The position numbers and the translations under genes are program-made. DNA of 64,000 nt from Escherichia coli. GTDB lineage: Bacteria > Pseudomonadota > Gammaproteobacteria > Enterobacterales > Enterobacteriaceae. Positions 38,330 through 48,826 of the stretch are shown here, piece after piece (within the stretch, counting starts at the first letter, position 1; each line of letters opens with the position of its first letter). The notes under the pieces were generated by a model. It was not told the origin of the DNA. It ran no database searches and saw only the letters and a list, made by a program, of their open reading frames with translations. The stretch lies in the NCBI RefSeq assembly GCF_044324785.1, contig NZ_CP172127.1. The stretch is one strand, 5' to 3'.

Positions 38330-38968
38330 ATGCCCGGGCGCTTTGAACTAAAACCAACCCTGGAGAAAGTCTGGCACGCGCCGGACAATTTTCGCTTCAT
38401 GGACCCGCTGCCGCCGATGCATCGTCGGGGGATCATTATTGCCGCCATTGTATTGGTGGTCGGATTTCTGCTTCCATCTGATGATACGCCCAACGCGCCG
38501 GTGGTGACGCGTGAAGCGCAGTTAGATATTCAGTCGCAATCACAACCGCCGACAGAAGAACAGCTGCGGGCGCAATTAGTCACCCCACAAAATGATCCTG
38601 ATCAGGTGGCTCCGGTCGCTCCAGAACCTATACAGGAAGGCCAGCCAGAAGAGCAGCCGCAAACCACCCAAACGCAACCATTCCAGCCAGATAGCGGAAT
38701 TGATAATCAATGGCGCTCTTACCGTGTCGAACCCGGTAAAACGATGGCGCAGCTGTTCCGCGACCACGGACTGCCCGCTACCGATGTCTATGCAATGGCG
38801 CAGGTAGAAGGCGCGGGTAAGCCGCTGAGTAATTTGCAAAACGGGCAGATGGTGAAAATCCGCCAGAACGCCAGCGGCGTGGTGACGGGCTTAACCATTG
38901 ATACGGGGAATAATCAACAGGTCCTGTTTACCCGCCAGCCGGATGGCAGTTTTATTCGTGCGCGGTAG
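38330..38968 (+). CDS. ytfB: OapA/LysM-like cell-division-associated protein
   Basis: 212 aa from internal ATG ([23 protein letters not shown]...), membrane anchor, Pro/Gln-rich linker. Confidence 0.8.
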
Positions 38969-39599
38969 ATGAAGGATCAACCAAAAGCCAGCTAAGGAGC
39001 GTCTCTTTGATGACCTTACGTCTGGCTTCCAGTGCCTGGGGGGAAACCATACTGATATGATAAACTAGGCCAAGCGTATGCTGGTTGATCAAATAATATC
39101 CCCCAAGCGCAGCAATATTAATATTCACCTGCAATGGGTCGATATCTGGCTTAAAAATATTGTGTTTCTTCCCTTCATCCAATAAGGATTCCATTAACTG
39201 CAAGTGCGCATGGTTAATTTCTAAGAGACGCTGTGATTTTGCATAATGCACACCTTTACTTTGATTTTCACTATGCACAATTTTTAAAAACCAGGGGTTA
39301 GCAATATAATAATCCCATGTAAAATCAATAATTTTCTCAATGGCTTTTTGTGGCGGAAGATCTGAGAAATCAAGGGCCTTTTCTTTTTGTCGAATATCGT
39401 TCCAGGTATATTCCAGTACTTCAATAAATAAATTTTCTTTATTACCAAAGTGATGATAAACCGTCTGTTTACTACACCCCGCAGCCTTAACAATATTATC
39501 GACCCTGGCCCCTTCATAACCATATTCGGCAAATTCATTAACCGCGCATAACAGCAGCTTTTCCTTCAGGCTCTGTACGTTGCTGGTATCAAGATACAT
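38952..39599 (-). CDS. TetR/AcrR-family transcriptional regulator, divergent from the accessory operon (possibly the intact form of K-12 ytfA)
   Basis: 215 aa from ATG at 39599; N-terminal HTH ([23 protein letters not shown]); 3' end overlaps ytfB by about 17 nt. Confidence 0.8.
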
Positions 39600-39721
39600 A
39601 ACGCTTCCCCACGACCTCTTCAAGACAACTATCTTAACCCGATTAATTAGAAGCTCCAGTAAAAAGGATAAAAACTTGTACTTTCATCAAGTTATCAAAT
39701 GTCCTGTGATCACTATCGCAT

Positions 39722-39743
39722 ATCAACCAACCAGATGGTTGAT
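39722..39743. promoter_or_regulatory. Perfect inverted repeat ATCAACCA-N6-TGGTTGAT in divergent promoter region; candidate operator of the TetR regulator
   Basis: Verified against ORF-track translation of this region; a second repeat CTTGCG-N6-CGCAAG lies at about 39748-39765. Confidence 0.4.
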
Positions 39744-39809
39744 CTTTCTTGCGGCACGTCGCAAGCTAATTGTCACTTAGAAACAATATTCAAAAAAGAG
39801 AGCTATTGT

Positions 39810-40601
39810 ATGAAATCCACTCGTCCTGTTGCCGTGATTACCGGAGCCGCTCGTGGTATTGGAAAGGGCTGTGCGCTGGAGCTTGCTCGTGGCGGATTTA
39901 ACCTGCTGATTAACGATCGCCCCGATGATGACAGCGTAGAAAAATTACATGCCACGCAACAGGAATGTCTGGCAGAAGGTGTGGAAGTGATTTGCTTCCC
40001 TGCCGATGTCGGCGATCTCTCCTTGCATGAAGAGATGCTCGACGCGGCACAAAACCAGTGGGGACGTCTGGACTGCCTGCTCAACAACGCAGGCATTTCA
40101 GTGAAAAAACGCGGTGACCTTCTCGACCTCGAACCAGACAGCTTCGACCAAAATATTGCCATTAACACCCGCGCACCGTTCTTCCTCGCTCAGGCATTCA
40201 GTAAGCGCTTACTGGCACAGCCGAAACCGGAAGCAGAACTGCCGCACCGCTCGATTATTTTTGTCAGTTCCATCAACGCCATCATGCTGGCGATGAATCG
40301 CGGCGAATATACCATTGCCAAAACTGCCGTCTCTGCCGCTGCTCGTCTGTTTGCTGCTCGGCTTTGTAATGAACAAATTGGCGTTTATGAAGTGCGTCCT
40401 GGTCTCATCAAAACCGATATGACTATTCCGGCAACGGCCTATTACGACGAACTGATTGCCAAAGGTCTGGTGCCGTGGGGACGTTGGGGTTATCCGGCTG
40501 ATATTGCTTCCACTGTCCGCGCGATGGCGGAAGGTAAACTGATTTACACCTGTGGTCAGGCGGTTGCCATTGACGGCGGCTTAAGTATGCCGCGTTTCTG
40601 A
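39810..40601 (+). CDS. Short-chain dehydrogenase/reductase (classical SDR, FabG-like)
   Basis: 263 aa; TGAARGIGKG cofactor motif, NNAG, catalytic Y-x3-K (YTIAK); RBS AAAGAGAG upstream. Confidence 0.8.
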   Translation: MKSTRPVAVITGAARGIGKGCALELARGGFNLLINDRPDDDSVEKLHATQQECLAEGVEVICFPADVGDLSLHEEMLDAAQNQWGRLDCLLNNAGISVKKRGDLLDLEPDSFDQNIAINTRAPFFLAQAFSKRLLAQPKPEAELPHRSIIFVSSINAIMLAMNRGEYTIAKTAVSAAARLFAARLCNEQIGVYEVRPGLIKTDMTIPATAYYDELIAKGLVPWGRWGYPADIASTVRAMAEGKLIYTCGQAVAIDGGLSMPRF

Positions 40602-40610
40602 GGCTGAATC

Positions 40611-41453
40611 ATGAGAGATCTGTTACAACGCCCGGATTTATTCAGTATCAATACCGCGACACTGGGCTATAAAACGCCGCTTCCCGCCATTATTGATGCC
40701 TGCGCCGCACGCGGTATTGGCGCAATTGCCCCCTGGCGCAGGGAGTTGCAGGGTGAAGATCTCCAGCAAATCGCCCGCCAGCTTGCCGCCAGTAAGATGA
40801 ACGTTTCCGGTTTGTGCCGTAGCACTTACTACACCGCGCCGACACTGGCGGAACGCAAACTGGCGATTGATGATAACCGCCGGGCGCTGGACGACGCAGC
40901 GGTGCTTAACGCCGCCTGTTATATGCAGGTGGTTGGCGGGTTACCGCAGGGAACAAAAGATTTGTACGAAGCGCGGGAACAAGTAAAACAAGGGATTCGC
41001 CAGTTGCTGCCACATTCGAAAGATGTCGGCGTGCCAATTGCGCTGGAGCCGCTGCACCCGATGACTGCTGCCGACCGCTCTTGCCTGTGCACGTTACGTC
41101 AGGCGCTGGACTGGTGTGATGAACTCGATCCCGATGGTGAGTTTGGCCTCGGCGTAGCGGTAGATGTCTACCATGTCTGGTGGGACCCGGATCTCGCCAG
41201 CCAACTCCAGCGCGCCGGAAAACGCATCCTCGCGTTTCATGTTTCCGACTGGTTAGTACCAACCACCGATCTGGTCAATGACCGTGGAATGCCGGGAGAT
41301 GGCGTCATCAATATTCCGTCAATTCGTCGGCTGGTTGAAAACGCCGGATTTAATGGCGCTATTGAACTGGAAATATTCTCGCCGTACTGGTGGCAAAAAG
41401 ATATTAACAGCACGCTGGATATTAGCGTCGATCGCATCGCGCATTATTGCTAA
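40611..41453 (+). CDS. Xylose-isomerase-like TIM-barrel enzyme (sugar-phosphate isomerase/epimerase or dehydratase superfamily)
   Basis: 280 aa; conserved metal-ligand-like positions (LEPLHP, HVSDW, ELEIFS); starts 9 nt after SDR stop. Confidence 0.75.
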   Translation: MRDLLQRPDLFSINTATLGYKTPLPAIIDACAARGIGAIAPWRRELQGEDLQQIARQLAASKMNVSGLCRSTYYTAPTLAERKLAIDDNRRALDDAAVLNAACYMQVVGGLPQGTKDLYEAREQVKQGIRQLLPHSKDVGVPIALEPLHPMTAADRSCLCTLRQALDWCDELDPDGEFGLGVAVDVYHVWWDPDLASQLQRAGKRILAFHVSDWLVPTTDLVNDRGMPGDGVINIPSIRRLVENAGFNGAIELEIFSPYWWQKDINSTLDISVDRIAHYC

Positions 41454-41462
41454 GGAATGATT

Positions 41463-42239
41463 ATGAGTGACCAACCCGTTCTGTTCAGCAGAGCGGCGGC
41501 TTCCTGCCGTCTGACATTGAACCGTGAAGATAAATGTCATGCTATTAATGAAGAGATGATTGAATCTCTCGATCATTATTTAAATGAAATTGAAAACGAC
41601 ACCACATTACGATTAGTCGAATTAACGGCAACCGGCGATAAATTCTTTTGTGCGGGCGGCGATATTAAATCGTGGTCAGCCTATTCGCCATTAGATATGG
41701 GCAGAAAATGGATTAAACGCGGTAATGACGTTTTTAATCGCCTGCGCAACTTACCCCAATTAACCGTTGCAAATCTCAACGGTCATACCATCGGCGGTGG
41801 TATTGAACTTGCTTTGTGCTGCGATATTCGTATTGCCCGTCCCGGCGCGAAATTCTCTAACCCGGAAGTGATGCTCGGCATGGTGCCTGGCTGGATGGGC
41901 ATTGAACGTGTGCTTAATCAGGTCGGTCCGGTGGTCGGTCGCCAGATGCTGATGCTGGGTAAACGCCTGACGGCGCGGGAAGCTCAGGCGGCGAATTTAA
42001 TTGATGAAGTGGTAGAAAAAGAACAGGTGGAAAGCTGGATGGCGAACCAGTTAGCGCAGCTGGAAAAATGTGGTCCGGTGGCGCTCGCACATATCAAGCA
42101 ACTGATTCTGGCACTGGAAAATAAACATGCCGATTACCCGCACCAGCTACTGGCTGGATTAATGTCCGCCACTCAGGATTGCCAGCAGGCGACGCGCGCG
42201 TTTGCCGAAAAAAGTAGCGTGAGCTTCCACAATCAATAA
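41463..42239 (+). CDS. Enoyl-CoA hydratase/isomerase (crotonase fold)
   Basis: 258 aa; oxyanion-hole segments FCAGGDIKSW and NGHTIGGGIELALCCDIRIA; start taken at second ATG, 6 nt after AAGGA. Confidence 0.8.
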   Translation: MSDQPVLFSRAAASCRLTLNREDKCHAINEEMIESLDHYLNEIENDTTLRLVELTATGDKFFCAGGDIKSWSAYSPLDMGRKWIKRGNDVFNRLRNLPQLTVANLNGHTIGGGIELALCCDIRIARPGAKFSNPEVMLGMVPGWMGIERVLNQVGPVVGRQMLMLGKRLTAREAQAANLIDEVVEKEQVESWMANQLAQLEKCGPVALAHIKQLILALENKHADYPHQLLAGLMSATQDCQQATRAFAEKSSVSFHNQ

Positions 42240-42248
42240 GGAAATTGT

Positions 42249-43790
42249 ATGCGTAAGATAACAACCGCCGAGGCACTGGCGGCGCAAATTCAGGACGGCG
42301 CAACCATTGCCATTAGCGGTAACGGCGGCGGCATGGTGGAAGCTGACCATATTATGGCCGCCATTGAAGCGCGTTTCCTGCAAACCGGACACCCTCGCGA
42401 TCTGACATTGATCCACTCGCTGGGTATTGGCGATCGCGACAGCAAAGGCACTAACCGTTTTGCTCACGCCGAAATGCTCAAACGCATTATTGCCGGACAT
42501 TTTACCTGGTCGCCCAAGATGCAGGAACTGGTGAAAAGCAATGCTATTGAAGCCTACTGTTTCCCTGGTGGCGTGATTCAGGCGTTGCTACGGGAGATCG
42601 GTGCCGGACGTCCGGGGCTTTTTACCCACGTTGGGCTGGGATCGTTTGTTGATCCACGCAATGGCGGCGGTAAGTCGAATGAATGCACTACCGACGACCT
42701 GGTAGAACTGATTGAAATCGACGGTGAGACCAAACTTCGTTATCGCCCTTTCAAAGTGGATTACGCGATTTTGCGTGGCACTTATGCCGATCCACGAGGC
42801 AACGTTAGCCTCGAAGAAGAAGCGATTGATATGGATAGCTATTCGATGGCGCTGGCAGCACACAACAGCGGTGGCAAAGTGTTCGTACAGGTACGCGATG
42901 TGCTGGAAGCAGGTGCCATTGAACCACGCCGGGTTAAATTACCGGGGATTCTGGTTGATGGCATCGTTGAACACCGCGAACAGCCACAAACCTATCTTGG
43001 CAGTTACGACCTGACCATCAGCGGCCAACATCGCCGTCTGAGTTCTAACGACGCTATTGAGCTGGTTAGTCATCCGGTGCGTCGCCTGATTGCCCGTCGG
43101 GCAGCGCGGGAACTGGTGGCAGGCGCTTCAACCAACTTTGGCTTTGGTATTCCCGGCGGCATTCCAGGAGTAGCGCTGCGCGAAGGCGTGCCTTACCAAA
43201 GTTTATGGCTGAGCGTCGAGCAAGGCGTGCATAACGGTATGATGCTGGATGATGCGTTTTTCGGCTGCGCCCGCAACGCCGATGCCATTATTCCATCACT
43301 CGATCAATTTGAGTTCTACAGTGGTGGAGGGATCGATATCACCTTCCTCGGCATGGGAGAGATGGATCAGTACGGTAACGTCAACGTATCCCATCTCAAT
43401 GGCAATCTGATTGGCCCCGGCGGATTTCTCGAAATTGCGCAAAATGCCCGTAAAGTGGTGTTCTGCGGCACGTTCGACGCTAAAGGCAGCAAAATCGATA
43501 TAACGCCAGATGGCTTGCATATCGCCCAGTCAGGTCAAATCCCTAAACTGGTTACCCAGGTGGAAAAAATCACTTTTAGCGCCGCCTACGCACAGCAAAG
43601 TGGTCAGGAAGTGTTGTATATCACTGAGCGCGCAGTATTCCAGTTAACGGCAGAAGGCGTTGAATTAATTGAAATCGCGCCGGGTGTAGAGATTGAGCGC
43701 GACATTCTGCCGTTCATGGCTTTCCGTCCAATTATCAAGCACCCACGCCTGATGGAAAGTAGCCTGTTTACGCCGATGGAGGATGCATGA
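42249..43790 (+). CDS. Family-I CoA-transferase, fused alpha/beta subunits (YdiF / propionate-CoA-transferase-like)
   Basis: 513 aa; N-terminal ISGNGGG and later SGGGIDITFLGMGEMDQYGNVNVS segments typical of 3-oxoacid CoA-transferases. Confidence 0.75.
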   Translation: MRKITTAEALAAQIQDGATIAISGNGGGMVEADHIMAAIEARFLQTGHPRDLTLIHSLGIGDRDSKGTNRFAHAEMLKRIIAGHFTWSPKMQELVKSNAIEAYCFPGGVIQALLREIGAGRPGLFTHVGLGSFVDPRNGGGKSNECTTDDLVELIEIDGETKLRYRPFKVDYAILRGTYADPRGNVSLEEEAIDMDSYSMALAAHNSGGKVFVQVRDVLEAGAIEPRRVKLPGILVDGIVEHREQPQTYLGSYDLTISGQHRRLSSNDAIELVSHPVRRLIARRAARELVAGASTNFGFGIPGGIPGVALREGVPYQSLWLSVEQGVHNGMMLDDAFFGCARNADAIIPSLDQFEFYSGGGIDITFLGMGEMDQYGNVNVSHLNGNLIGPGGFLEIAQNARKVVFCGTFDAKGSKIDITPDGLHIAQSGQIPKLVTQVEKITFSAAYAQQSGQEVLYITERAVFQLTAEGVELIEIAPGVEIERDILPFMAFRPIIKHPRLMESSLFTPMEDA

Positions 43791-45859
43791 GTCAGCTTGA
43801 TGACACCATCCTTGATGCGCTGACGCACGTCACTTTCCCAAAGGGGTTTGTGTCAGCAGAGCCAACGTCAATTGTCACCGTTGAGGATGTTGATTACCCG
43901 ATCTGGCAAGTTGATGCGCTGGTCGTTGGTAGCGGCGCAGCAGGATTACGTGCGGCAGTTGAACTTAAACGCCGCCAGCAAAATGTGCTGATCGCCACCG
44001 CCGGGTTATATATGGGGACGTCGGCATGTTCTGGTTCCGATAAACAGACGTTGTTTACCGCCGCTACCGCGGGCAACGGCGACAACTTCGCCAAACTGGC
44101 AGAGGCACTTGCGAGCGGTGGGGCGATGGATCACGACACCGCTTATGTCGAAGCGGTAGGTTCTCTGCACACTCTTGGCGGGTTGCAATATCTTGGTCTG
44201 GAATTACCGGAAGATCGCTATGGCGCGATTCTTCGTTATCAAACCGACCATGACGAAGCCGGGCGTGCAACCTCGTGTGGGCCGCGTACCTCAAGGTTAA
44301 TGGTGAAAGTGCTGCTGGAAGAAGTACAGCGTCTTGCTATCCCAATGTTGACCAGTGCAACAGTGATTAAACTGCTGCATCAGCGTGACGAAAACGGCGA
44401 AGACCGCGTGGCGGGGGCTATCCTCGCGACCGGTCATCGCGCCCATAACCCATGGGGGCTGGCAATTGTGATTGCGCCCAATGTGGTACTGGCAACAGGA
44501 GGGCCTGGCGAGCTTTATCGCGACAGTGTGTACCCACACAAATGTTTCGGCTCGCTGGGTCTGGCGCTGGAGGAAGGTCTGACGCTAACGAATCTGACTG
44601 AAAGCCAGTTTGGTATAGGCACACCGCGCAGCACGTTTCCGTGGAATTTGTCCGGGACTTATGTACAGGTGATCCCATATATCTATTCCGTGGATGCTGA
44701 GGGTAACGAGTATAACTTCCTCGCGGATTACTATCGCACCACCCAGGAGCTGGCTTCAAACATTTTCCGTAAAGGCTATCAGTGGCCGTTCCACGCCACT
44801 CGGGTGATGGATTTTGGCTCCAGCTTGTTAGATATGGCAGTAGCGCAAGAGCAGCAATCAGGGCGTCAGGTATTTATGGATTTCAATCGCAATCCTGAAG
44901 CGGTGCCGGGTGACCTGCCCTTCTCATTAGATCGACTGGACGACGACGTTCGCGCGTATCTGGAAAATAACGACGCTCTGGCACCATCGCCCATCGAACG
45001 GCTGCAACGAATGAATCCGCTGTCTATCTCGCTGTATAAGATGCACGGTTACGATCTCACCACACAGCCATTGCAGTTTGCCATGAATAATCAGCATATG
45101 AATGGCGGCATTGAAGTCGATATCTGGGGACAAACATCTCTACCCGGTTGTTTTGCAGTGGGGGAAGTTGCTGGCACACACGGCGTCACCCGACCTGGCG
45201 GCGCGGCATTGAATGCCGGGCAGGTTTTTGCTGTTCGTCTGGCACGTTTTATTGGTTGCACGCAAAAGCGGAATATTGATGGAGATATAGCACAGCTGGC
45301 AGCTCCGGCACTGGCTTCTATAAGAGAGATCATTACTCAGGCGCACGATAACGGGACCGGGATGCCGTTGTCGGTTGTGAGAGAAAAAATTCAGGCACGA
45401 ATGTCTGACCATGCGGGATTTATTTGTCATGCCGATAAAGTCCGACGCGCCACTCGTGATGCCCTGCTATTGAACGAATTTGTCCAACGGCATGGATTGG
45501 CAATCAAACATGTGGGTGAAGTTTCCGAGCTGTTTATGTGGCGGCATATGGCGCTGACTTCTGCCGCGGTATTAACACAATTAACGCATTATATTGATGC
45601 TGGTGGCGGCAGTCGTGGGGCGCGGATGGTTATTGATCCACAAGGCAAATGCCTACCACAAACTCGTCGCGGCGTAAAAGAAGAATGGCGTTTTCGCTCT
45701 GAACTCGCTGAAGATAAAAATCACAAATTAACAATTCAATATTCGCAAGGTTCTTTTATTACCGAAGTAAAGTCTTTACGTATGCAACCGTGTATTAACG
45801 GTATTTACTTTGAAAAAAACTGGCCAGACTTTTTAAAGGGAGACATTTACACACAATAA
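43787..45859 (+). CDS. FAD-binding oxidoreductase of the fumarate-reductase/succinate-dehydrogenase flavoprotein superfamily
   Basis: 690 aa; dinucleotide fold VVGSGAAGLRAA, later GEVAGTHGVTRPGGAALNAGQVFAVRLARF; ATGA overlap with upstream gene. Confidence 0.75.
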   Translation: MSQLDDTILDALTHVTFPKGFVSAEPTSIVTVEDVDYPIWQVDALVVGSGAAGLRAAVELKRRQQNVLIATAGLYMGTSACSGSDKQTLFTAATAGNGDNFAKLAEALASGGAMDHDTAYVEAVGSLHTLGGLQYLGLELPEDRYGAILRYQTDHDEAGRATSCGPRTSRLMVKVLLEEVQRLAIPMLTSATVIKLLHQRDENGEDRVAGAILATGHRAHNPWGLAIVIAPNVVLATGGPGELYRDSVYPHKCFGSLGLALEEGLTLTNLTESQFGIGTPRSTFPWNLSGTYVQVIPYIYSVDAEGNEYNFLADYYRTTQELASNIFRKGYQWPFHATRVMDFGSSLLDMAVAQEQQSGRQVFMDFNRNPEAVPGDLPFSLDRLDDDVRAYLENNDALAPSPIERLQRMNPLSISLYKMHGYDLTTQPLQFAMNNQHMNGGIEVDIWGQTSLPGCFAVGEVAGTHGVTRPGGAALNAGQVFAVRLARFIGCTQKRNIDGDIAQLAAPALASIREIITQAHDNGTGMPLSVVREKIQARMSDHAGFICHADKVRRATRDALLLNEFVQRHGLAIKHVGEVSELFMWRHMALTSAAVLTQLTHYIDAGGGSRGARMVIDPQGKCLPQTRRGVKEEWRFRSELAEDKNHKLTIQYSQGSFITEVKSLRMQPCINGIYFEKNWPDFLKGDIYTQ

Positions 45860-45951
45860 TTTTCAATATTTCCTCTGTACCTGATTTTTATTGCCTATTA
45901 CATGGAAATACCAACAACCAGGGTTTATTAATATAATTAAAAGGTTTAAAA

Positions 45952-47229
45952 ATGAATAAAATAAAGAATTATCGATGGCATATGATTGCCCTCGTATGCT
46001 TTATCACTGTAATCAATTATCTGGACAGAACGGCGTTAGGTATTGCGGCTCCAACGATTATGGAGACAACCGGAATAACTAAAGAGCAATATTCATGGAT
46101 TGTCAGTGCATTCCAGTTGGCCTATACATTAGGGCAACCGGTAATGGGCTTCTTTATTGATACCGTGGGTCTGAAGTTAAGTTTTGCGATATGTGCCGCA
46201 ATTTGGGGCCTGGCGACAATGGGCCATGCACTAACCGGAACGTGGTCTGGTCTGGCATTTATGCGCGCCCTGATGGGTTTCAGCGAAGCGTCGGCAATTC
46301 CGGCGGGTGTAAAAACCGCATCAACATGGTTCCCGGCAAAAGAGCGTGGCGTGGCGACAGGTGTTTTCAATATGGGCACCTCACTCGGCGCGATGCTTGC
46401 TCCACCGTTGATTGCCTGGTGCATTATGTTTCATAGCTGGCAATTTGCGTTTATTGTTTCAGGTAGCCTTGCTTTGCTCGCGGCTTTATTTTGGTTCTTT
46501 TGTTATAAAGATCCGAAAGATGCCAAACGCCTTTCTGATGAAGAGCGCCACTATATTGAATCAGGGCAAGAACAGCATCTTAAAACAGATAAGAAAGAAA
46601 AAACGTCAATCAAGCATATCCTCAGCCAACGTAATTTCTGGGGGATTGGCATCGCGCGTTTTCTCGCAGACCCGGCATGGGGAACCATTAACTTCTGGGT
46701 GCCGATTTTCTTCGTCGAAACGCTGCATTTTAGCCTGAAAGAAATTGCCATGTTCGTCTGGCTGCCTTTCCTGCTGGGCGATCTCGGCTGTTTAGCCAGT
46801 GGTTTTGTCGCGAAGTTCTTCCACGATCGCGGCGTGAGTTTAATTAACTCACGAAGAATTACCTTCACTATTGCAGCCGTCATTATGATGACGATTGGCC
46901 TGGTGAGTATTGTCGAAAATCCCTACATTGCCGTATTACTGATTAGTATTGGCGCGTTCTCGCATCAATGTCTTTCTACTGTAGCAGCAACTCTGGGTGG
47001 CGATCTGTTCAAAAAAGACGAAGTAGCTACCGCAGTGGGTATGGCAGGAGCCTGTGCGTGGAGCGGTCAGTTGATTTTCAACCTGTTCATCGGGGCATTC
47101 GTTCACATTATCGGCTTCGCGCCGTTCTTTATTGCCCTGGCTTTCTTTGACATTATTGGTGCTATTGCGTTGTGGACGCTTATCAAAGTTAAAGATGAAG
47201 AACCGCAAGTACAGCTAGCTACCCATTAA
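45952..47229 (+). CDS. MFS transporter, anion:cation symporter (ACS) family, ExuT/DgoT-like
   Basis: 425 aa; N-terminus NYRWHMIALVCFITVINYLDRTALGIAAPTIME and FPAKERG loop resemble hexuronate/aldonate transporters. Confidence 0.85.
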   Translation: MNKIKNYRWHMIALVCFITVINYLDRTALGIAAPTIMETTGITKEQYSWIVSAFQLAYTLGQPVMGFFIDTVGLKLSFAICAAIWGLATMGHALTGTWSGLAFMRALMGFSEASAIPAGVKTASTWFPAKERGVATGVFNMGTSLGAMLAPPLIAWCIMFHSWQFAFIVSGSLALLAALFWFFCYKDPKDAKRLSDEERHYIESGQEQHLKTDKKEKTSIKHILSQRNFWGIGIARFLADPAWGTINFWVPIFFVETLHFSLKEIAMFVWLPFLLGDLGCLASGFVAKFFHDRGVSLINSRRITFTIAAVIMMTIGLVSIVENPYIAVLLISIGAFSHQCLSTVAATLGGDLFKKDEVATAVGMAGACAWSGQLIFNLFIGAFVHIIGFAPFFIALAFFDIIGAIALWTLIKVKDEEPQVQLATH

Positions 47230-47242
47230 TTATTTTAAATAA

Positions 47243-47272
47243 AAACGCTATAATTGAGGTTATGGCGTTTTT
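47243..47272 (+). terminator. Probable rho-independent terminator after the MFS transporter gene
   Basis: AAACGCTATAA...TTATGGCGTTT stem (one G-U pair) followed by T-run. Confidence 0.4.
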
Positions 47273-47499
47273 AAAGAAGCTTGAGTTATCGAACCTCGCT
47301 TACCAACGCGTTGTCAATCATATCCCCCCTCCCTGCTGCATCGTTATATCCACAATGAGCGATTTTTGATATTAATATCTTTCACCATCCGCTATTTTCA
47401 CTACTTCAGAAAACAAACTTATTTTTATTAATATCGATTCTTTATTCTGTAAACATTCAGCTGAGATATTTATAAAAACATTAAACAGGCAACGATACA

Positions 47500-48294
47500 A
47501 TGACATTACCAACCACTATTTATTCATTTCCTGCATATTCACCCCGTTTTTCGTCCACCGACAAACCAGTAAAATTAAAATTTCATCAATACGCACGCGC
47601 TACATTACTTTCAAATCGTGGAAGAGATCATAATTGCGATGGCAGACATACTGTTGAGATCCACAAACTAGATCTCTCAGACTGGCAAGCATTCAATAAA
47701 CTAGCGATGGCGTGTAATGCTTACGATGGAATAACAATGAATGGTGATAATTCTTTTGGATGGAACCATGAAGCTACATTAGATAATATTCACGCCCAGA
47801 AATACAATAAAGCTTACGCGGGTGCGAGGTTAACCGCAGAACTGAAATATTTATTGCAAGATGTCGAATCCTTCGAACCCAACAGTAAATACACAATACA
47901 CGAGGTTGTTTTGGGTCCAGGTTATGGTACTCCAGACTATACCGGCCAAACGATAGGATACGTTGTAACCCTTCCTGCCCAAATGCCTAATTGCTGGTCA
48001 TCTGAACTACCAACAATCGATCTTTATATCGACCAACTTCGCACTGTTACAGGCGTTTCTAATGCCCTCGGATTCATCATTGCTGCATTGCTAAACGCGT
48101 ATTCTGATTTACCCCATGATTTGAAAATTGGTCTGCGTTCCTTATCAAGTTCAGCAGCAATCTACTCGGGTTTGGGTTTCGAGCGAGTGCCGCAGGGCCG
48201 AGACATAAGGTGCGATCATATGCATCTAACGCCAGCAAACCATCCTGAATTATGGACACAAGAGAATGGTGAATGGATCTACTTGCGAAACTAA
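47500..48294 (+). CDS. yjfZ: Uncharacterised DUF2686-like protein YjfZ (AT-rich gene)
   Basis: 264 aa, no motifs recognised, preceded by 270-bp AT-rich spacer; position next to rplI matches yjfZ. Confidence 0.7.
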   Translation: MTLPTTIYSFPAYSPRFSSTDKPVKLKFHQYARATLLSNRGRDHNCDGRHTVEIHKLDLSDWQAFNKLAMACNAYDGITMNGDNSFGWNHEATLDNIHAQKYNKAYAGARLTAELKYLLQDVESFEPNSKYTIHEVVLGPGYGTPDYTGQTIGYVVTLPAQMPNCWSSELPTIDLYIDQLRTVTGVSNALGFIIAALLNAYSDLPHDLKIGLRSLSSSAAIYSGLGFERVPQGRDIRCDHMHLTPANHPELWTQENGEWIYLRN

Positions 48295-48317
48295 TACCTG
48301 ACGAAAAATAGAAAGCA

Positions 48318-48345
48318 AAACGCCGACCACTGGTCGGCGTTTTTA
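48318..48345. terminator. Bidirectional terminator between yjfZ and rplI
   Basis: ACGCCGACC-ACTG-GTCGGCGT followed by TTTT. Confidence 0.55.
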
Positions 48346-48364
48346 CGTCTCGTTGAATAACGAA

Positions 48365-48826
<462 letters not shown>

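Follow-up and report, generated by a model that had tools for sequence, protein, structure and literature searches.

A transporter gene of the ExuT subfamily at the 3' end of an Escherichia coli cluster for CoA-dependent and redox enzymes may serve the uptake of a uronate-like acid

The stretch of DNA analysed here (the window, 64,000 nucleotides of Escherichia coli contig NZ_CP172127.1, assembly GCF_044324785.1) contains a gene for a transporter from the major facilitator superfamily (MFS), which lies at the 3' end of a cluster encoding a TetR-type regulator, a short-chain dehydrogenase/reductase (SDR), a TIM-barrel protein, a crotonase, a coenzyme A (CoA)-transferase and a flavoprotein (Table 1). 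An original prediction made from the window had described the gene product as an ExuT-like anion symporter for an acidic sugar-like substrate that, in the company of CoA-dependent enzymes, might enter a CoA-thioester route, and as a whole this interpretation is partly supported by the present analysis. The open reading frame of the transporter starts with ATG and contains no internal stop codons, the equivalent gene is annotated as an MFS transporter in RefSeq, the protein is an exact match to a protein cluster with 2811 member sequences, and the region from 39000 to 48500 is 97.8% identical to its best match in E. coli. The transporter gene is real and intact.

Table 1. Features of the transporter gene and of the adjoining gene cluster in the window
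Feature	Position	Strand	Details or basis
Divergent TetR/AcrR regulator (TetR_N + TetR_C_29)	38952..39599	-	Pfam, RefSeq
Palindrome ATCAACCAACCAGATGGTTGAT, candidate TetR operator	39722..39743	.	E. coli, Klebsiella, Salmonella, Citrobacter
SDR oxidoreductase	39810..40601	+	NCBIfam PRK12745, 420 bits
Xylose-isomerase-like TIM-barrel protein (sugar isomerase/epimerase family)	40611..41453	+	
Crotonase-family enoyl-CoA (de)hydratase	41457..42239	+	
Fused family-I CoA-transferase, YdiF-like	42249..43790	+	2AHU (E. coli YdiF), E value 5e-115
FAD_binding_2 flavoprotein, 690 amino acids, SdhA/FrdA-like fold, fast-evolving C-terminal ~200 amino acids	43787..45859	+	
Variable cassette: flavoprotein 3' end, MFS gene and yjfZ; TRAP dctQMP in the other E. 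coli haplotype	45628..48311	+	
Gap of 92 bp, flavoprotein gene to transporter gene	45860..45951	+	
ExuT-subfamily ACS/MFS anion:H+ symporter gene, 425 amino acids	45952..47229	+	Open reading frame, profiles, tree
NYLDR motif in TM1, residues 22-26	46015..46029	+	Y23, D25, R26 correspond to DgoT Y44, D46, R47
FPAKERG cytoplasmic loop motif, residues 127-133	46330..46350	+	FPAKERS in K-12 ExuT
Intrinsic-terminator-like hairpin and U-run, directly 3' of the transporter stop codon	47240..47273	+	Minimum free energy -15.6 kcal/mol

Profile searches assigned the transporter to Pfam MFS_1 (E value 3e-62) and, as its best NCBIfam family, to TIGR00893 (ACS family 2A0114; E value 6e-94, 315 bits). The closest solved structure was that of the D-galactonate:H+ symporter DgoT (E value 2e-40), with residues 9-410 of the transporter aligned to DgoT 29-437, and both the profile and the alignment to this solved member point to the two six-helix bundles of the MFS fold; a crude hydropathy scan fits an MFS protein and does not resolve 12 helices. 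Over its full length the transporter is 47% identical to ExuT from E. coli K-12 (P0AA78, the hexuronate:H+ symporter, TC 2.A.1.14; E value 1e-151), against 20-25% identity to DgoT, GudP, GarP, LgoT and RhmT from the same strain. In a neighbour-joining tree (BLOSUM62 distances, 424 columns, 100 bootstrap replicates) the ExuT clade obtained 100% bootstrap support, apart from a DgoT/GudP/GarP/LgoT clade supported at 97%, and the window protein clusters with E. coli ExuT, leaving out DgoT, GudP, GarP, LgoT and RhmT. The ExuT clade consists of three groups, namely clade A (100% bootstrap), which holds the window protein, clade B, formed by an ExuT-like protein from Salmonella Typhimurium together with copies from Klebsiella and Salmonella clusters described below, and K-12 ExuT as sister to both. 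By sequence comparison, the transporter is classified as an MFS symporter within the ACS family and its ExuT hexuronate subfamily, and its predicted fold is of the DgoT-like 12-helix type. The original prediction was right about the ACS family, and its generic ExuT/DgoT/GudP-type grouping can be narrowed to ExuT; the likeness to this type seen in the N-terminal 190 residues is genuine, but its extent was understated, as the protein is homologous to K-12 ExuT from end to end. Both motifs named there, NYLDR and FPAKERG, are present. Of these, FPAKER is typical of ExuT, whereas DgoT has WFPEHERA.

The residues expected to bind substrate and protons were compared with those of DgoT, for which mutagenesis has assigned Y44, R47 and Y79 to a carboxylate anchor and D46 and E133 to proton coupling (PMC10149257). 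The anchor is kept in the transporter as Y23, R26 and Y58, and the proton pair (TM1 and TM4) as D25 and E112. The position of DgoT D46 is occupied by Thr in K-12 ExuT and by Ala in the Klebsiella paralogue, so that the window protein and K-12 ExuT, which belongs to a separate clade, differ at this site. The two proteins are of the same subfamily and length class and have in common the FPAKER motif, the motif RFLA(D/E)PAWGT, the Y/R/Y/E anchor and an Arg at the position of DgoT Q264. DgoT shares the ACS fold, the anchor and the proton pair with the transporter (PDB 6E9N/6E9O), but identity is only 25% and the pocket residues of the C-domain are changed, the ExuT-specific replacements being Q264 to R236, S370 to T343, N393 to G366 and Q164 to T143. 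These changes are as expected for a ring-form uronate and not for an open-chain aldonate. Deletion of exuT in K-12 results in loss of growth on glucuronate or galacturonate (bioRxiv 10.64898/2026.05.20.726482).

The closest relatives of the transporter were examined in a set of ten clade-A members, with Morganellaceae, Orbaceae, Erwiniaceae, Yersiniaceae and Hafniaceae among the sources, which are 79-90% identical to each other and 79-86% identical to the window protein. Four of the ten genes, found in Providencia, in Gilliamella and on a mobile island of E. coli, adjoin or diverge from uxuA-uxuB-uxaC, and the island also encodes a kinase of PfkB type and a KDPG aldolase. Such a setting is that of the classical glucuronate route. 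On account of their position beside or divergent from uxuA-uxuB-uxaC, the Providencia and Gilliamella transporters (81-85% identical to the window protein, with all mapped pocket positions the same) and a S. Typhimurium transporter, which fits the description of STM3134 (PMC7660916), are presumed to be glucuronate importers. As the window protein is nearly identical to its clade-A relatives and shares with them all nine pocket and coupling positions defined by DgoT, it should import what these relatives import, most simply glucuronate. Only six positions (S77, L145, L275, G276, A308 and A390) set the two copies linked to the enzyme cluster, those of the window and of Citrobacter tructae, apart from the eight other clade members. 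The gene contexts of the copies from Pantoea, Edwardsiella and a further source (P0035) were uninformative or merely suggestive; the Edwardsiella transporter gene (locus L012, 12050-13402) adjoins genes for a family-4 glycoside hydrolase (GH4) and an AraC regulator instead of uxu genes. Other E. coli strains possess further clade-A copies in mobile contexts. Unlike K-12 exuT, the window gene is not located beside uxaCA/exuR and is not followed by a gene for a GntR regulator, and linkage to uxaC, uxuA and uxuB with a GntR-type regulator was not found at the window locus. Also, the uxu-linked relatives carry upstream UxuR-type boxes, whereas the copy in the window lacks them and closes a TetR-linked set of CoA and redox genes instead.

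The sampled genomes of Klebsiella oxytoca, Klebsiella pneumoniae, Salmonella and C. tructae contain the same seven-gene cluster, flanked by ytfB and rplI, with SDR, TIM-barrel protein, crotonase and CoA-transferase 87-96% identical, and flavoprotein 77-79% identical, to those of the window. In Klebsiella and Salmonella the slot of the transporter gene is occupied by the clade-B ExuT paralogue, which is 50% identical to the window transporter and whose closest context-checked relative is the uxu-divergent S. Typhimurium transporter (about 62% identity). Among 5426 complete E. coli genomes, 3152 (58%) have the enzyme genes of the cluster; the MFS gene described here is present in 1692, and in 1481 genes for a TRAP transporter (dctQMP) lie at exactly the same position. 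The TRAP system is of a transporter class unrelated to MFS and lies outside this window, so that it provides context evidence only. Its binding protein has as best structural relatives 4OVR, 4X8R, 4N8Y, 4N15 and 4N91 (E values 1e-71 to 1e-63), and it matches the hexuronate-binding TRAP proteins as a group (STM3169; PDB 4N91, 4MHF, 4N15, 4X8R and 4N8Y) at E values of 1e-71 to 1e-60. According to published work, 4X8R, 4N8Y and 4N91 contain glucuronate or galacturonate as bound ligand, and 4N15 was the template used for STM3169, a glucuronate binder (PMC11668362, PMC7660916). The R/R/N triad of these binders is kept in the protein of the alternative haplotype, in which N31, Q32, R146, R166, N206 and D233 correspond, with the numbering shifted by 4 throughout, to the glucuronate set of STM3169, a match of numbering and not of an alignment. 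The slot is thus filled by the MFS transporter of the window, a second ExuT paralogue or a TRAP system; the three represent two unrelated classes of importer, and all have relatives linked to uronates through gene context or bound ligands. That uronate-linked importers replace one another beside the same enzymes makes it likely that the operon substrate is uronate-like. The pairing with CoA enzymes on which the original prediction had relied is borne out, the CoA-transferase and enoyl-CoA hydratase genes being real, located upstream in the same orientation and kept in all four other sampled genera, and it is strengthened because the slot always holds an importer with relatives linked to glucuronate genes or binding uronates.

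The two E. coli haplotypes are distinguished by the segment at 45628-48311 with the MFS gene and yjfZ and by the corresponding segment with TRAP dctQMP and without yjfZ (locus L021, 11842-15004); between them identity is only 91% in the enzyme region that they share, as compared with 99% in the rplI flank, which suggests that they are old, separately maintained alleles. E. coli K-12 lacks a stretch of about 8 kb that corresponds to window positions 39355-47330 (compared with NC_000913.3, 4427423-4428095). What is left of the cluster there is the pseudogene ytfA, which represents the 3' part of the TetR gene, and an SDR fragment of about 100 bp; therefore, K-12 lost the operon, including the transporter gene, by deletion.

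Several features bear on whether the transporter gene is transcribed together with the enzyme genes. Lying between the genes for TetR and SDR, the palindrome (consensus ATCAACCAAC[CT]AGATGGTTGATCTTT, with perfect arms ATCAACCA-N6-TGGTTGAT) is kept together with its flanks in Klebsiella, Salmonella and Citrobacter and probably represents the TetR operator. The hairpin behind the transporter gene probably marks the end of the operon. In the 92-bp gap upstream of the transporter gene no terminator-like site was detected, and the equivalent gaps in the TRAP and Klebsiella/Salmonella variants measure 20-57 bp. This gap also lacks a UxuR-type TTGGTnnACCAA box; as the TTGGTnnACCAA pattern also failed on the K-12 exuT operators, the comparison of UxuR boxes is indicative only. 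A second TetR operator in the gap was considered and rejected, as it contains only a short AACCAGGGTT palindrome that is not kept in other genera. One weak promoter-like match (9/12) overlaps the stop codon of the flavoprotein gene.

Considering placement, residues and context together, we think it reasonably probable that the transporter imports a glucuronate-like acid with protons on behalf of the operon that its gene closes. Taken up along with protons, the substrate would be a uronic acid (D-glucuronate or a near analogue); on the model of DgoT, its carboxylate would be gripped by R26, Y23 and Y58, and D25 would hand a proton to E112. Encoded at the end of a putatively TetR-controlled operon, the transporter would feed the substrate to the SDR, the TIM isomerase, the crotonase, the CoA-transferase and the SdhA-like flavoprotein.

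Some observations weigh against this explanation. The score of the transporter is below the curated NCBI cut-off of 395 bits for TIGR00893, which is passed by K-12 ExuT (427 bits) and DgoT (495 bits) in control searches; the uxu-linked relative from Providencia (323 bits) and the Klebsiella paralogue (314 bits) fail as well, and therefore the threshold shuts out whole ExuT clades and not the window gene alone. The transporter gene has a GC content of 0.47, compared with 0.49-0.55 for most enzyme genes, and the 92-bp gap could house a promoter of its own. The numbers of E. coli genomes with MFS and with TRAP genes add up to those holding the enzymes, an agreement of totals and not of intersected genome lists. 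The near-identity to uxu-linked relatives suits equally well a stand-alone glucuronate importer for the UxaC pathway. According to this last alternative, which is considered unlikely, the transporter is an independent second importer of glucuronate and galacturonate that feeds UxaC-UxuAB/UxaAB, and the CoA and redox genes are merely adjacent and unrelated. It would account for the 79-86% identity to clade-A transporters, several of them uxu-linked and with the same set of binding-site residues, for the lower GC content and the upstream gap, and for the additional clade-A copies in mobile contexts of other E. coli strains, and a precedent is provided by the orphan glucuronate TRAP system of S. 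Typhimurium, which sits away from metabolic genes (PMC7660916). However, three importers of uronate type fill exactly this slot across lineages, the MFS and TRAP totals in E. coli match, as totals, the enzyme-holding genomes, and the gap shrinks to 20-57 bp in other variants. Furthermore, no terminator precedes the transporter gene, a clear one follows it, the gene has lost UxuR-type boxes (as far as the indicative pattern tells), and the deletion in K-12 took enzymes and transporter together.

The enzymes of the cluster give further hints at the substrate. For the SDR, a mechanically called open reading frame begins at 39699 (300 amino acids), but the RefSeq start and a PRK12745 alignment from residue 38 favour the start at 39810 (263 amino acids). 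The best solved structures for the TIM-barrel protein, 3QC0 and 3JU2, have no assigned function. The crotonase has one Glu in each of two catalytic motifs, and its best structure is that of the 3-hydroxypropionyl-CoA dehydratase 5ZAI. A predicted model of the flavoprotein (pLDDT 82.7) superposes on SdhA/FrdA over the whole length. Pfam and this predicted SdhA/FrdA-like fold rule out a protein of the Old-Yellow-Enzyme/FadH or BaiCD type, and it is not a true fumarate reductase either, as the FrdA residues H232, T234, E245, R287 and H355 and the His for covalent FAD are absent and only R390 is kept (R469). Residues 491-690, approximately (45257-45859), show 46-82% identity, compared with 83-98% for the first 490 residues, and in two E. 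coli that share a haplotype the value is still no more than 82%. The low identity had been considered as a recombination edge tied to the type of transporter, but the C-terminal 200 amino acids or so diverge in every pairwise comparison, so there is no such edge. UxaC- or UxuA-type genes were not found among the cluster enzymes by RefSeq, Pfam or NCBIfam annotation.

E. coli already possesses ExuT and a complete pathway for glucuronate and galacturonate, so plain glucuronate as the operon substrate would be redundant, a further point against the explanation favoured here. Because E. coli already catabolises both uronates, a second dedicated operon suggests another compound, and it may be asked whether the operon substrate is a carboxylate that resembles them, of ring shape or polyhydroxy type, and that enters by relaxed or shifted specificity of the importers; candidates would be L-iduronate, mannuronate/guluronate, quinate/shikimate, or a uronate that is 4-deoxy or unsaturated. 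The lack of UxaC/UxuA-type genes in the enzyme set would fit, as would the six lineage-specific substitutions, which include L145, two residues past pocket position T143, the relatives of the TIM-barrel protein that act on keto-sugar acids, and the YdiF-like CoA-transferase. In K-12, ydiF adjoins ydiB-aroD, genes for quinate and shikimate. On the other hand, the transporter does not differ from the uxu-linked relatives at any of the nine positions mapped for pocket and coupling, the TRAP binder carries the full residue set of glucuronate-specific binders (by numbering match only), and nothing in the evidence singles out one alternative compound; we consider a look-alike substrate rather improbable.

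The neighbourhoods of 80 flavoprotein relatives were surveyed. In 78 further loci from other species, with flavoproteins of 36-59% identity, the neighbours included SDR, TIM-barrel, Gfo/Idh/MocA, PfkB kinase, KDPG aldolase, LacI and GMC oxidoreductase genes, the transporters being ABC sugar systems, TRAP systems or further ACS-like MFS proteins. The survey of the 80 neighbourhoods brought up carbohydrate genes, but no single recognisable pathway, and these neighbours place the flavoprotein family in carbohydrate or sugar-acid catabolism. This bears on the idea that the transporter carries a non-sugar anion, aromatic or aliphatic (for instance phthalate, a short hydroxy acid or hydroxyphenylacetate), for a CoA pathway similar to beta-oxidation; aromatic and hydroxy acids had also been listed for uptake assays in the original prediction. 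The ACS family does include permeases for phthalate and 4-hydroxyphenylacetate, a weak match to HpaX (E value 5e-16) was obtained, and CoA-transferase, crotonase and flavoprotein recall a short-chain acyl-CoA module. However, the tree sets the transporter firmly inside the ExuT hexuronate clade, and not among non-acid transporters, and does not favour aromatic or hydroxy acids, the alternative TRAP binding protein is of uronate type, the flavoprotein relatives occur among Gfo/Idh/MocA, PfkB kinase, KDPG aldolase and LacI genes, and the cluster includes a TIM barrel of sugar-isomerase type. A non-sugar anion is considered very improbable.

Relatives of the flavoprotein, SDR and TIM-barrel protein occur without CoA genes in other bacteria, which shows that CoA-transferase and crotonase are an add-on in only some lineages. 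A second type of enterobacterial cluster (loci L025-L027, from Escherichia sp. ESNIH1, Pseudescherichia vulneris and Mangrovibacter) consists of genes for TetR, SDR, Gfo/Idh/MocA, TIM-barrel, ACS-like MFS and flavoprotein; its SDR, TIM-barrel protein and flavoprotein are 47-59% identical to those of the window, and CoA-transferase and crotonase are absent. Between the two cluster types, the NAD-dependent oxidoreductase and the CoA pair look as if they were alternatives.

It is plausible that the imported acid may enter a CoA-thioester route. A specific version, in which the operon dehydrates a uronate as CoA thioester following the logic of the carnitine pathway, is viewed as doubtful. In such a route, the YdiF-like transferase would form hexuronyl-CoA, the crotonase would yield a 4,5-unsaturated uronate by removal of the beta-hydroxyl (C4-OH), the TIM isomerase and the SDR, acting in a KduI/KduD-like manner, would lead the product towards 2-keto-3-deoxygluconate, and the SdhA-like flavoprotein would supply a redox step. 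The carnitine pathway (cai) combines the transporter CaiT, the CoA-transferase CaiB, the crotonase CaiD and the reductase CaiA for a beta-hydroxy acid substrate. The E. coli cai operon thus resembles the window cluster in its importer, CoA-transferase, crotonase and flavin oxidoreductase, by analogy only, as the parts are not homologous beyond the crotonase family and the window cluster has a family-I CoA-transferase, an SdhA-like flavoprotein and, in addition, an SDR and a TIM-barrel isomerase. In the literature searched, no mention of a uronyl-CoA species and no papers on this cluster were found. If true, a CoA route could open uronates that are inaccessible to UxaC, such as L-iduronate from host glycosaminoglycans, to gut E. 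coli and Klebsiella.

The transporter itself is an ordinary addition to the hexuronate-permease subfamily and the operon is the interesting part. Sugar acids are important nutrients in the gut for E. coli, Salmonella and Klebsiella. The operon is also widespread in K. pneumoniae assemblies, and the presence of an importer gene of glucuronate/galacturonate (ExuT) type at the end of this common set of CoA and redox genes of E. coli and Klebsiella suggests an undescribed use of a uronic-acid-like nutrient; the loss of the operon from K-12 may explain why it has not been studied. Three interchangeable importers with relatives tied to uronates provide a concrete and cheap hypothesis on the substrate. 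If the enzymes do not act on a uronate by way of CoA thioesters, the gene would be just a second hexuronate permease, and if they do, the operon would represent a new type of sugar-acid catabolism.

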